Source: a phage
Direction: 5' to 3' (one strand)
Length of the DNA: 64,000 bases
Sequence record: PZ445473.1
Shown here: positions 371-54,131 of the stretch, one piece after another
Position numbering within the stretch: position 1 is the first letter of the stretch
How the letters are laid out: the number at the start of each line of letters is the position of its first letter
Notes under the pieces: generated by a model
Databases searched by the model: none
What the model saw: only the letters and a program-made list of their open reading frames with translations
What the model was told of the DNA's origin: nothing
Translations under genes and position numbers: made by a program

Positions 371-1455
371 TGCCACAAGATAATTATATTGACCCGAACG
401 ATTTTAAATCTTTCCTCCAACTGGATGACCTGAAGGGTTCTTTCAAAGAAGAACTTGGTCGATTAGAATCTGAACAAGAACCAGAAGTGGACATTGACGA
501 TGAGTTCCCGGAAAAAGACGGTGACGATTTCGACTTTGATACCGACCTTCTCGGTGAAAGCGATGAGCTTAAGTTCGAAGATGAAGATGGTTGGGAAGAT
601 CGTGACGAGGAAGGCGAAGTCGAACAAGATGAGGAAGAATCTGACGAATCAGACGAAAGTTCTGAAGCAGATGAGGAAGACTCAAGCGATGCAGGATATG
701 GAGATGATTCTGCTGACGGTGAAGGTGAAGTCTTTGATGTAGACTATGAAACCGTTATCACCCTTCCTGATGGACGTGAGATGACTATTGAAGAACTCTC
801 CAATGGCTATCTTACTGGTGCTGATATGGCTGAACGTGAGACTACTCTTCAGCGTCACATGGAAGCATTTGAGGAACGTGTAGTAGGTTTGAAGGATGTA
901 TTAGAATTAGCGTCTTTAGAAGCAGACCGAGTAATTGAAGATTACAACGGTTTTGATTGGGACAAGCTTGCAGTAGAAGATCCTCAAGCATATGTTGAAA
1001 ACAAACGTTTCCTAGAGAAGTATACAGCTCGTCGTAACCAGCTTGAACAGGCTCAGATCCGTATTAAGCAGGAAGCAGCAGCTAAAGAGCAGGAAGCTTT
1101 CCAAGCCAAGAGCATTGAATGTGTTAATATTCTGAAACGTGAGATTCCAAATTGGGATGAAAACTTATATCAAAACTTAATGCAATACGCAATTGACTTA
1201 GGTGCTACTGAAGAAGAAGTATTGAAGGAAAACCGTCCGTCTATTTTCCTAGCCCTTCACAAAGCATACCAATTTGATAAAGGTAAGCAGCAGGTGATGG
1301 CTAAGATTAAACGTCCCGGTGCTCCACGCAAGGTTGTGAAGTCTGATGCTGCAAAGTCTCGCACTTCCAATAAGCCAGACAACGCTAAGGTTGCCAAGGC
1401 ATTCGCAGAGGGTCGCGTTAGTCACGAAGACGCATTCAAATTCCTCGTAGATTAA
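370..1455 (+). CDS. putative scaffolding protein (highly acidic N-terminal half, helical C-terminal half)
   Basis: 361 aa; long Asp/Glu runs (DEEESDESDESSEADEED); sits directly upstream of the capsid gene. Confidence 0.5.
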   Translation: MPQDNYIDPNDFKSFLQLDDLKGSFKEELGRLESEQEPEVDIDDEFPEKDGDDFDFDTDLLGESDELKFEDEDGWEDRDEEGEVEQDEEESDESDESSEADEEDSSDAGYGDDSADGEGEVFDVDYETVITLPDGREMTIEELSNGYLTGADMAERETTLQRHMEAFEERVVGLKDVLELASLEADRVIEDYNGFDWDKLAVEDPQAYVENKRFLEKYTARRNQLEQAQIRIKQEAAAKEQEAFQAKSIECVNILKREIPNWDENLYQNLMQYAIDLGATEEEVLKENRPSIFLALHKAYQFDKGKQQVMAKIKRPGAPRKVVKSDAAKSRTSNKPDNAKVAKAFAEGRVSHEDAFKFLVD

Positions 1456-1496
1456 TCGACAAATTAATTATTTAATAGTATAGGAGCTAACATAAC

Positions 1497-2558
1497 ATGG
1501 CTAATCCAACTTTATTTGTATCGTATGACCAGAATGGTAAAAAACTTTCTTTTGCTAACTGGATTTCTGTTCTGTCCCCTCAGGATACTCCGTTCGTATC
1601 TATGACCGGTAAAGAGTCTATCAACCAGACTATCTTTAGCTGGCAGACCGATGCATTGGCAAGCGTTGACGCTAATAACGCACACGTTGAAGGTTCTCGT
1701 GCGGTTGATGGTGAAATGCAACCTACCGTAATCAAATCCAACGTTACTCAGATTCTGCGTAAGGTTGTTAAAGTTTCTGATACCGCTAACACCACCGCTA
1801 ACTACGGTCGTGGTCGTGAACTGATGTATCAGCTGGAGAAGAAAGGTAAAGAGATCAAGCGTGACCTCGAGAAAATCCTTCTGTCCGGTCAGGCTCGTAC
1901 CGATGTTCTGGCTGACCAATACCTGACTAACTCCGCAACTGATCCTTCAGCTGTTGGTCTGAACGACACCCACGCAGCTCGTAAGACTGGTGCTTTCCAG
2001 TTCCTGTGTGCACACAACGGTGTTTCTGCTGGTGTTGTTAAGAAAGAAAATGGCCCTGCTGATCCGGATACTGGTGCAGTAACTGTTAAAGTTGCACAGA
2101 ATGCTTCTAACCCGACCACTAACGTTGGTTTTGATGAAGCTGATATCTTTGATATGACTCTGCAACTGTACACTGCTGGTTCTGAAGCAGATATCATCAT
2201 GATCAACCCTGCTCATGCTAAGATCTTCGCTGGTCTGCAAGAAAACACTCAGGGTTCACGTAAGCGTATCTTTGAGAACACCAAGCAGTTCATCTACGAA
2301 GTTAACAGCATCACTGACCCGCTGGGCCAGAACTACAAAATCATCGTTAACCGTTGGATGCCTACCGATGCAGTTTACTTCTTCCGTAGCGCTGACTGGA
2401 CTCAGATGGTCCTGCGTGCTCCGAAACGTACTGAACTGGCAAAAGATGGTTCTTATGAGAAGTGGATGATTGAAATGGAAGTTGGTCTGCGTCACCGCAA
2501 CCCTTATGCTTCCGGAGTTCTGTTCACTGCTGCGGGAAAGTTGGATCCGCAACAGTAG
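1497..2558 (+). CDS. major capsid protein (short form)
   Basis: 353 aa ORF after scaffold gene; AGGAG RBS at 1482-1486; followed by an in-register -1 frame Ig-like extension and a terminator. Confidence 0.65.
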   Translation: MANPTLFVSYDQNGKKLSFANWISVLSPQDTPFVSMTGKESINQTIFSWQTDALASVDANNAHVEGSRAVDGEMQPTVIKSNVTQILRKVVKVSDTANTTANYGRGRELMYQLEKKGKEIKRDLEKILLSGQARTDVLADQYLTNSATDPSAVGLNDTHAARKTGAFQFLCAHNGVSAGVVKKENGPADPDTGAVTVKVAQNASNPTTNVGFDEADIFDMTLQLYTAGSEADIIMINPAHAKIFAGLQENTQGSRKRIFENTKQFIYEVNSITDPLGQNYKIIVNRWMPTDAVYFFRSADWTQMVLRAPKRTELAKDGSYEKWMIEMEVGLRHRNPYASGVLFTAAGKLDPQQ

Positions 2559-3076
2559 ACAGTGTGACTGTTAGCCCTGCGTCTGTAGAAAGTCTAGAGA
2601 CAGGGGCTACTCAGCAGTTTACTGCAAGCGCTGAGAAGAGTGACGGCTCTACCGAAACAACTGGCTTTACTTGGTCAGTAACAGGAGGCGGCTCTATCAC
2701 TCAGTCTGGTTTGTATACTGCTCCGAGTGCGGCTCAATCCACTGATGTATCCATTACTGCGACTTTAGAGGGTGTTTCTGGTACAGCAACCATTTCTGAA
2801 ATTGTTGATCCTGCCCCTACTATTGTAGCTAAGGGTCCAATTACAGGTAAAACTGGTGGTTCTTCCACTAACTTCACTACCATGTTTACTGTAACTAATT
2901 CTACTGCTGCGGATTACACGTTTGTTGTAACCCCTGAAGAAGCTGGTACAGTAAGCGCTGCTGGTGCGTTAACCTTAGATGATGCTGCAAGTGGCGAAGT
3001 TACTGTTCAAGCAAGTTTGACAGCTGACCCGTCCATCAATGCAACATGCACTTTTACTGGTGTAACACCTGCTTAA
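1497..3076 (+). CDS. major capsid protein long form with C-terminal Ig-like (Big_2-type) domain, produced by -1 frameshift
   Basis: -1 frame ORF 2474-3076 encodes TVSPASVESLETGATQQFTASAEK...GFTWSVTGGGSITQSGLYTAP, a typical bacterial Ig-like pattern; the ORF track starts it at GTG 2564 but the frame is open back to 2474. Confidence 0.5.
2534..2540 (+). other. candidate -1 programmed ribosomal frameshift slippery heptamer G_GGA_AAG
   Basis: GGGAAAG lies in the capsid zero frame as G GGA AAG, 16 nt before the capsid stop; the -1 frame is open from 2474 to 3076. Confidence 0.5.
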
Positions 3077-3083
3077 AATTAGA

Positions 3084-3110
3084 CCCTGCCTTCGGGCGGG
3101 GTTTTTTCGT
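3084..3110 (+). terminator. rho-independent terminator after capsid genes
   Basis: Hairpin CCCTGCC-TTCG-GGCGGGG followed by TTTTTTCGTTTT. Confidence 0.6.
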
Positions 3111-3135
3111 TTTAAGACCTATACAAGCCAGCGTG

Positions 3136-3145
3136 TAATGTATAT
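3136..3145 (+). promoter_or_regulatory. TAATGTATAT motif (putative phage promoter element)
   Basis: One of at least six intergenic copies of TAATGTATA, here 33 nt upstream of the ATG at 3178. Confidence 0.4.
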
Positions 3146-3177
3146 TCTTTGTCTACATATAACAAGGAGGACAACCT

Positions 3178-3930
3178 ATGGCAATGCCAGATGTTCAATA
3201 CCCCATCAATACCTATGGGTGGCTAAAGAAGGCCGTGGCCCTCTGGGCAGATAGGGACGATGACGAATTTGTTAATCAAATTCCAAACTTTATTAACTTT
3301 GCAGAGAAAGAGATTTATCGTAACTTACGTATCCCTCCTCTGGAAAAAGAAGTGTATTTAGATATTAAAGATGGAGTAGCTTACATTCCTCCTGATTACC
3401 TAGAAGCTCAATGGATGATGAGAGCCAAAGATGGTACAATCTTCCAAGTAACCTCTCCTGAAGAGATTAGCTATCGTAGACAGCATGGAACAATTAATCC
3501 ATCTCATTGGAATAACCAACCTGTTAACTTTGCTCGTTTCGGTAGTCGTTTCATTTTCTACCCTAGCATCGAAGCAGATACTCCGTACTACCCTGATGAT
3601 GGAAGCCCTTTGATTCCAGCAGAAAACTCAGTAATTCTTAGCTATTATGCAGACCCACCGGAATTCCACGAAGATGAAGATACTAGTGCAATCCTCACTA
3701 TCGCACCAGAACTTCTTCTGTATTTCACTCTGCGTCATGCTTGCTTATTTGTTCAAGATGATAACGGAGTTCAGAAATGGTCAGCATTAGGAAAAGCTAT
3801 CCTTGATGAAATGGTAGAACAGAATAAGAAACAAGAGTACTCAGGTTCACCTATCGCAATTCCGAATAACATGACTCGACTTCAGAGCAGCTTGCCTGAT
3901 ATTTATGGTATTCGTACTTCTCGTGTATAA
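3178..3930 (+). CDS. hypothetical virion protein
   Basis: 250 aa ORF with AGGAGG RBS; located between capsid and tail fiber genes. Confidence 0.5.
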   Translation: MAMPDVQYPINTYGWLKKAVALWADRDDDEFVNQIPNFINFAEKEIYRNLRIPPLEKEVYLDIKDGVAYIPPDYLEAQWMMRAKDGTIFQVTSPEEISYRRQHGTINPSHWNNQPVNFARFGSRFIFYPSIEADTPYYPDDGSPLIPAENSVILSYYADPPEFHEDEDTSAILTIAPELLLYFTLRHACLFVQDDNGVQKWSALGKAILDEMVEQNKKQEYSGSPIAIPNNMTRLQSSLPDIYGIRTSRV

Positions 3931-54056: not shown

Positions 54057-54131
54057 TGGCGTTCCCTCGTGGAATCGAACCACGAATAAGAGCTTAGAAG
54101 GCTCCAGTTATATCCGTTTAACTAAGGGAAC
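54057..54131 (-). tRNA. tRNA-Arg (anticodon UCU)
   Basis: Hand-folded cloverleaf: acceptor GTTCCCT/AGGGAAC, D stem GTTA/TAAC, anticodon stem GGAGC/GCTCT, loop CTTCTAA, T arm CGTGG-TTCGATT-CCACG, discriminator G, CCA. Confidence 0.8.

Follow-up and report, generated by a model that had tools for sequence, protein, structure and literature searches.

A probable programmed −1 frameshift fuses the major capsid protein to two tandem Ig-like domains in a Kuravirus-like phage identical at this locus to Escherichia phage Bas92

According to reviews, the addition of Ig-like domains to phage structural proteins through frameshifting forms a general class. Surface Ig-like domains on virion proteins, often added by frameshifting, comprise the class of Fraser et al. 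2006 and include those of T5 pb6 and T4 Hoc; in pb6 and Hoc, unlike in the recoded extension described here, the domains are encoded in frame or occur as separate proteins. At gene 10A/10B of T3 and T7 a −1 shift near the end of the capsid gene likewise yields a minor, C-terminally extended capsid protein, which bears out the parallel to a T7-like capsid long form drawn when the present DNA was first read from its letters alone (henceforth the sequence-only reading). The T3 extension is Ig-like, whereas that of T7, unlike the one here, is not, and T3/T7 gene 10 differs from the phage studied here in its slip site and in the sequence family of its capsid. The lambda G/GT heptamer is the identical G_GGA_AAG. 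There, the same type of −1 heptamer slip keeps the long product at a fixed, low proportion of the short one, but the product is a tail chaperone and no Ig domain is displayed. Shift efficiencies are given as ~3.5% for lambda G/GT and ~10% for T3/T7 gene 10 (PMC9965538).

Recoding at the capsid gene itself is already known from close relatives of the phage studied here, having been described in phiEco32 in 2008, in SU10 in 2014, in Privateer in 2021 and in YF01 in 2023. The primary phiEco32 paper is said to be that of Savalia in 2008, and its evidence reaches us second-hand through papers that cite it. As those papers relate it (PMC4281155, PMC7881722), a frameshifted capsid product was reported for phiEco32. 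In the SU10 genome paper (PMC4281155), GGGAAAG was located in the major head gene, a fusion to the Ig-like CDS10 was predicted ‘as in phage phiEco32’ and capsid forms of 38.5 and 55.4 kDa were recorded by mass spectrometry. The same signal was described for Privateer (PMC7881722), with two gel bands and mass-spectrometry detection, in a paper which says that phiEco32 and SU10 also showed the frameshifted product. For YF01 (PMC9965538) the heptamer and an extended capsid isoform were described group-wide, the isoform having ~500-550 aa in most Kuravirus-like members and 892 aa in YF01 itself; the same paper states that the SU10 −1 frame has a premature stop. We confirmed this stop: a 1-nt insertion in the deposited SU10 sequence truncates the extension after 11 codons. 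The insertion does not fit the 55.4 kDa form described in 2014; the SU10 head solved by cryo-EM has a uniform capsid protein and no extra density, and according to a later paper SDS-PAGE gave no long-form band for SU10. The capsid CDS is annotated as a two-part join in the GenBank record of YF01, and the Bas92 record still lists two separate genes.

The window analysed here is a stretch of 64,000 nucleotides from a phage (PZ445473.1). Its positions 1400-3200 are 100% identical to Escherichia phage JacquesWildberger_Bas92 (PQ850610.1), a member of the BASEL collection, which covers Gordonclarkvirinae; the BASEL paper describing Bas92 mentions neither the frameshift nor the Ig domains. The same segment is 99.4% identical to phage LAMP and ~95% identical at the nucleotide level to phiEco32, SU10 and many Kuravirus-like podophages. 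Genes follow one another in the order scaffolding protein (370-1455), major capsid protein (1497-2558), Ig ORF, adaptor (3178-3930, Pfam SU10_adaptor) and tail fibres, and the order of scaffold, capsid, Ig and adaptor genes agrees with that in Kuravirus-like relatives. Two features delimit the region of interest:

1497-2558, plus strand: major capsid protein gene, read in the zero frame from ATG 1497 to TAG 2556-2558 (353 aa, 38.9 kDa)
3081-3114, plus strand: intrinsic terminator, a hairpin followed by a T-run, closing the capsid and Ig transcription unit

The capsid protein matches Pfam SU10_MCP (E 4e-78) and the solved SU10 major head protein 7Z45 (E 2e-224), its GenBank label in Bas92 (Bas92_0005) is ‘major head protein’, and its start has a Shine-Dalgarno duplex energy of −6.5 kcal/mol. 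The terminator at which the Ig ORF had been said to end is indeed there, as a T-run hairpin with a 10-pair stem (6 G-C) at 3081-3104, and one is annotated at the equivalent place in the SU10 record. Neither a terminator nor a plus-strand promoter was found between the capsid and Ig ORFs. On the opposite strand we saw a 49-aa ORF (2734-2883) and one weak promoter-like match, and nothing else of note. The phages phiEco32 (gp11/gp12), SU10, YF01 and Paul have the orthologous site at ~95% nucleotide identity, with GGGAAAG and a SU10_MCP capsid as here, and the long forms of the phiEco32 group likewise have a Big_2-first extension followed by a terminator.

The end of the capsid gene contains the following elements:

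2534-2540, plus strand: slippery heptamer G_GGA_AAG, in which position 2535 begins a codon of the capsid frame set by ATG 1497
2541-2558, plus strand: zero-frame tail, encoding LDPQQ and the stop; the −1 reading of the same bases is the linker VGSATV
2540-3076, plus strand: −1 frame extension of 178 codons plus TAA 3074-3076

A phase check against ATG 1497 confirmed the heptamer in the capsid frame, where the sequence-only reading had placed it; its position ahead of the capsid stop also stood, with the distance to the TAG being 15 nt rather than the 16 nt claimed. The heptamer puts GGA in the P site and AAG in the A site, and both tRNAs could re-pair on GGG_AAA. The last upstream stop of the −1 frame lies at 2471-2473, so the frame is open from 2474 to the TAA ending at 3076, precisely as described earlier. 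A slip would produce a computed protein of 526 aa and 55.7 kDa (353 aa and 38.9 kDa without the shift); the fusion had been predicted correctly, at a length of about 527 aa that is one residue too long. The computed junction, ...LFTAAGK followed directly by VGSATVDSVTVSPASV..., is exactly the one proposed. Transcriptional slippage needs long homopolymers, and was rejected as the source of the shift, the runs here being only three bases long. In E. coli, G_GGA_AAG is highly shift-prone according to a review (PMC5009743).

To see how this site behaves in relatives, sequences were gathered from GenBank phage records and, with the capsid protein as query, from IMG/VR viral contigs, and further metagenome and viral contigs were retrieved by a DNA pattern upstream of the heptamer, so that retrieval was independent of the heptamer itself. 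GGGAAAG is invariant and in phase in all of the 19 distinct Kuravirus-like sequences aligned (alignment A1; ES17 and LAMP were checked separately), and its Gly and Lys codons are without synonymous variation, whereas the neighbouring codons vary. Every Kuravirus-like sequence has its capsid stop 9-15 nt after the heptamer, and, with the sole exception of SU10, each has a −1 frame that runs on from the heptamer for 178-545 codons without a stop, Bas92 having the short, two-domain version. Bas92 and LAMP stand apart in having the zero-frame stop 15 nt past the heptamer, compared to 9-12 nt in the group, and the linker VGSATV, compared to GGGV or GSGGV in other Kuravirus-like phages; over the relatives as a whole the spacer from heptamer to stop measures 0-15 nt and its −1 reading is GGGV, GSGGV or GGSV. 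GGGAAAG is also kept in Proteus phage J3S and Cronobacter phage 009 (Privateervirus), with a capsid only ~57% identical. Privateer shares the frameshift signal found here, as seen in these two relatives, but there the heptamer directly abuts the TAA stop and the 169-codon extension, an I-set and a Big_2 domain, is not homologous in order to the Bas92 domains. In Salmonella phage pSal-SNUABM-01 a second capsid paralogue of 597 aa has Big_2 domains fused in frame. Since both this in-frame fusion and the Privateervirus extensions exist, covalent attachment of Ig domains at this capsid C-terminus recurs across the family. The locus has the in-phase site, the open −1 ORF lacking an initiation signal of its own and the conservation expected of a programmed −1 frameshift, together with the orthologous capsid, the shared site and the matching gene order that characterize the Kuravirus-like long forms.

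The length of the −1 frame bears on whether heptamer and open frame could coincide by accident, or be an inactive relic that yields no long form. We counted 50 in-phase X_XXY_YYZ heptamers in the window's 63 proxy genes, and the −1 frame stays open for long after this one alone (178 codons, compared to 30 for the runner-up); a random in-gene codon is followed by a −1 run of at least 178 codons with P ~0.003 (~0.3%); because the run is unique among the 50 and this improbable, the combination is more than chance. An accident or relic is further at odds with the invariance of the heptamer, with conservation of the extension at the protein level and its confident folding as Ig domains, and with the reports of two capsid forms in relatives. 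What speaks for it is that SU10 survives with its extension truncated, from which it follows that growth in the laboratory does not require the long form; the long form is accessory, not essential, and we regard the absence of any long form as scarcely credible.

Whether the Ig ORF is reached by a frameshift or from a start of its own depends on its annotated start:

2564-2566, plus strand: GTG, annotated start of the ‘Ig domain containing protein’ Bas92_0006, probably not the real start

If real, this start would make 2564-3076 an independent gene for a free, non-covalent decoration protein of 170 aa, like Hoc or the phi29 head fibre. Such a gene is what the records of Bas92, LAMP, phiEco32 and most other phages annotate, and the SU10 structure paper considers that gp10 may be a minor capsid protein in its own right. 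Translation of 2564-3076 from its own start had been named at the outset as one of the findings that would overturn the frameshift, and no such start was recognized: the GTG has no Shine-Dalgarno sequence, its duplex energy of −0.5 kcal/mol being the weakest of the 63 proxy genes (median −6.5) and weaker even than that of the median random position, and it is not conserved. It is absent from the NJ01-like and ECBP2-like phages, 172-1, Bas89 and SGF2, where the first start is codon 34 or 47; across orthologues the first ATG, GTG or TTG of the −1 frame is codon 9, 16, 17, 34, 47 or 61, and initiation at codon 34, 47 or 61 would remove part of Ig domain 1. Shine-Dalgarno-like matches precede only late candidates (a weak AAGG before codon 94 in YF01 and AGGAG before codon 146 in Bas89), which are too far inside the ORF for these matches to serve the Ig domains. 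Despite the missing GTG, residues upstream of the candidate starts are conserved as protein: the peptide TVDSVTVSP (TVD(S/T)(V/I)TVSP), which begins upstream of them, forms the first strand of Ig domain 1. Public gene calls of the Ig ORF range from 110 to 254 aa, the outcome expected when a frameshift is missing from the annotation. We thus found no translation start of the Ig ORF's own, as the gene for a free decoration protein would need. We prefer the frameshift over an independent gene because the heptamer is invariant, its nucleotides being conserved over ~43% capsid divergence, because no start or Shine-Dalgarno sequence is conserved, because the upstream peptide is, and because a relative carries capsid and Ig domains in one frame; free translation from the GTG as the sole source of the Ig protein is, on this evidence, highly improbable. 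The two routes might also operate side by side, the frameshift producing the fusion and leaky, Shine-Dalgarno-independent or coupled initiation producing some free Ig protein. With the GTG 6 nt past the capsid stop in this clade, termination-reinitiation is conceivable, but the GTG is not conserved, and nothing requires a second route; we think such a mixture quite improbable.

The programmed frameshift, to which we assign a probability of roughly 85% as the way in which this phage makes a capsid-Ig fusion, is supported both by this comparative evidence and by the reports from phiEco32, SU10 and Privateer, in line with what had been proposed from the letters alone. Most ribosomes would halt at TAG 2556 and release the 353-aa capsid protein; in a minority, the tRNAs on GGA and AAG would slip in tandem by −1 onto GGG_AAA (2534-2540), and these ribosomes would read the −1 frame to TAA 3074, giving the 526-aa protein. 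The two routes of translation can be told apart by their peptides. A tryptic peptide VGSATVDSVTVSPASVESLETGATQQFTASAEK is predicted to begin at the shift point and to include eight residues encoded upstream of the annotated GTG, and a GluC or chymotrypsin digest is predicted to contain the junction-spanning sequence ...TAAGKVGSATVD...; independent initiation predicts instead an N-terminal fMet-TVSPASVESLETGATQQFTASAEK, i.e. (f)MTVSPASVESLETGATQQFTASAEK.

The extension had been described as a single Big_2-like Ig domain of a surface-adhesion type. We divide it into two domains:

2555-2794, plus strand: Ig-like domain 1, Big_2-like (extension residues ~6-85)
2813-3073, plus strand: Ig-like domain 2 (extension residues ~92-178)

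The fold and the orthologues (28-37 bits) uphold the Big_2-like assignment, but the number of domains is two instead of one, and against Pfam Big_2 (PF02368) the sequence of the window itself reaches 20.5 bits, short of the gathering score (22.8). For orthologues the scores are 28.3, 36.9 and 55.4 bits, and domain 1 is best called Big_2-like by orthology. With a profile of nine orthologues, the first half of the extension matched the Big_2-type repeats of a teneurin-like protein (E 1.4e-9) and the second half a C-terminal stretch of the phage T5 tail tube protein pb6 (residues 379-460, E 4e-5). AlphaFold2, run with a 30-sequence alignment, modelled the extension as two beta-sandwich domains at pLDDT 96.8 (domain 1 >95). 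In a Foldseek search with the two-domain model the best match was the tandem Ig-like segment of Leptospira LigA (8gyr, E 2.7e-11), followed by invasin, NCAM, titin and S-layer Ig-like arrays. The model thus confidently predicts two tandem Ig-like domains, closest to the Big_2 repeats of LigA, and these results bear out the Ig-like, adhesion-type description. The long form would consist of an HK97-fold body, a short Gly/Ser-type linker and the two Ig-like domains. As a minor component it may enter the prolate head alongside the short form and expose the Ig domains on the head surface, where, judging from the fold and the literature on phage Ig domains, they would probably serve weak adhesion to carbohydrate or cell surfaces.

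For a site of this type the expected stimulator is an RNA structure 5-9 nt away on the downstream side or a Shine-Dalgarno-like element upstream, and a downstream stimulatory structure had been suggested as something to look for. Two candidate hairpins were seen:

2551-2572, plus strand: candidate hairpin A (RNAfold), stem AACAGT/ACTGTT with a 10-nt loop
2573-2609, plus strand: candidate hairpin B, extended by RNAalifold to 2564-2622

Hairpin A (2551-2556 paired with 2567-2572) lies 9-12 nt 3′ of the heptamer (10 nt here), and all six of its pairs are invariant in the 19 sequences, so that there is no covariation for or against it. Hairpin B has an inner-stem pair that is UA in 10 sequences, GC in five and AU in four and broken in none, with the free third base of a Ser codon tracking an opposite base that changes the amino acid; an adjoining pair is GC in 12 and UG in six, and 95% of cells are paired compared to 30-55% in slid controls. 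This covariation is suggestive only, as just two pairs change on both sides, among closely related sequences, and the hairpin lies >30 nt from the site. Synonymous variation just 3′ of the heptamer is marginally lower (0.28-0.34) than further on (0.37-0.45), a drop too marginal to give support to an overlapping RNA element, and no Rfam family was found in the region at gathering thresholds. Upstream, a GGAG at 2513-2516, 17 nt before the heptamer, was rejected as a stimulator, since it is GGCG or GGTG in relatives, and no Shine-Dalgarno-like element is conserved upstream among the relatives compared. The published SU10 stem-loop has the heptamer itself as its loop (PMC4281155); we rejected it as a downstream stimulator because a ribosome on the site would have melted it.

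The present analysis adds two small points to what was described before: probable non-canonical shift sites in Aeromonas-phage relatives and the weakly supported downstream hairpin. In a wider reading, which as a whole is possible but doubtful, Ig addition by recoding would be an ancestral, family-wide trait of SU10-type capsid genes, brought about by interchangeable signals: G_GGA_AAG in Kuravirus and Privateervirus, A_AAA_AAG in another lineage, an in-frame fusion in 7-11-like phages and, in Lahexavirus-like Aeromonas phages, an unannotated non-canonical G_GTA_AAG followed after 6 nt by a hairpin. In the same tentative reading the Kuravirus group would adjust its balance of long and short capsid protein through the covarying hairpin at 2573-2609, and the Ig arrays might contribute to the mucus or glycan adherence reported for Kuravirus ES17.

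The value of these results lies mainly in annotation, the Bas92 result being a correction of the record that raises no new biological question. In Bas92, LAMP, phiEco32, ES17 and most of the ~100 related records the Ig ORF appears either as a gene of its own or as a ‘hypothetical protein’, its start differing from record to record, and the joined capsid product is annotated in YF01 only. The probable display of Ig domains bears on therapeutic Kuraviruses with regard to mucus adherence, immunogenicity and pharmacokinetics, and, as a further use of such display, the capsid C-terminus may serve as a display site.

The G_GGA_AAG heptamer and the complete 178-codon Ig-like capsid extension that follows it are retained in phage ES17, the Kuravirus for which tail-fibre binding to mucin and heparan sulfate has been reported:

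L048 2241-2783: heptamer and Ig-like capsid extension, phage ES17 (MN508615)

The ES17 record labels the extension 'hypothetical protein', and none of the passages of the ES17 paper in which 'Ig-like', 'capsid' or 'phiEco32' occurs makes mention of capsid Ig domains. In public protein databases the entries for the Ig ORF (P0001-P0020) form clusters of 110-254 aa, indicating that its start has been called inconsistently.

As found by comparison with its relatives, phage SU10 differs by a 1-nt insertion and two substitutions at hairpin A, the candidate stem 3' of the heptamer:

L003 2138-2180: sequence differences in the hairpin A region, SU10 (KM044272)

With these changes hairpin A becomes a perfect 11-bp inverted repeat, and the -1 frame closes after 11 codons. 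This fits the cryo-EM result for the SU10 head but is at odds with the 2014 report of a 55.4 kDa form; the changes could represent either a true mutation or a sequence error. The Bas92/LAMP clade, to which the window belongs, is distinguished by the linker GTTGGATCCGCAACA (window 2541-2558), which includes a GGATCC site and carries CAA in place of the usual TAA, so that the capsid stop (TAG) is shifted 6 nt downstream. The sole Rfam or ARAGORN match in the window is a single tRNA gene:

Window 54057-54131, - strand: tRNA-Arg, anticodon TCT

Several relatives carry tandem paralogues of the capsid gene, numbering two in 7-11-like phages, two in A24 and three in APT65:

L015 3001-4794: tandem capsid paralogues, Salmonella phage pSal-SNUABM-01
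L018 2992-5096: tandem capsid paralogues, Cronobacter phage A24
L019 1069-3927: tandem capsid paralogues, Aeromonas phage APT65

The second pSal-SNUABM-01 copy (597 aa) is a capsid protein fused in frame to Big_2. Another lineage, a 125-kb relative, has A_AAA_AAG located 3 nt 5' of the capsid stop, after which the -1 frame continues for only 42 more codons, rich in Pro, Val and Lys:

L014 4421-4555: A_AAA_AAG and short -1 extension, IMG/VR UViG_3300033688_000038

The canonical heptamer is absent from the Aeromonas-type relatives (L009-L011 and LAh_8), whose capsid proteins are 58-66% identical to that of the window, and here a G_GTA_AAG is the point from which the -1 frame stays open past the end of the capsid ORF:

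L009 4408-4924, and the equivalent place in L010 and L011: open -1 frame past the capsid stop
L050 1438-1704: open -1 frame past the capsid stop, Aeromonas phage LAh_8 (= L012)

These extensions of 90-171 codons encode Ig-like domains, either two Big_2 (119 bits) or I-set, and no start with a Shine-Dalgarno sequence was seen near their N-terminus. In L009-L011 a 6-pair hairpin begins 6 nt 3' of G_GTA_AAG, and the GenBank annotation of LAh_8 has only a 75-aa 'tail protein'. The Aeromonas-type relatives thus probably use a non-canonical -1 frameshift at G_GTA_AAG that the annotations lack.
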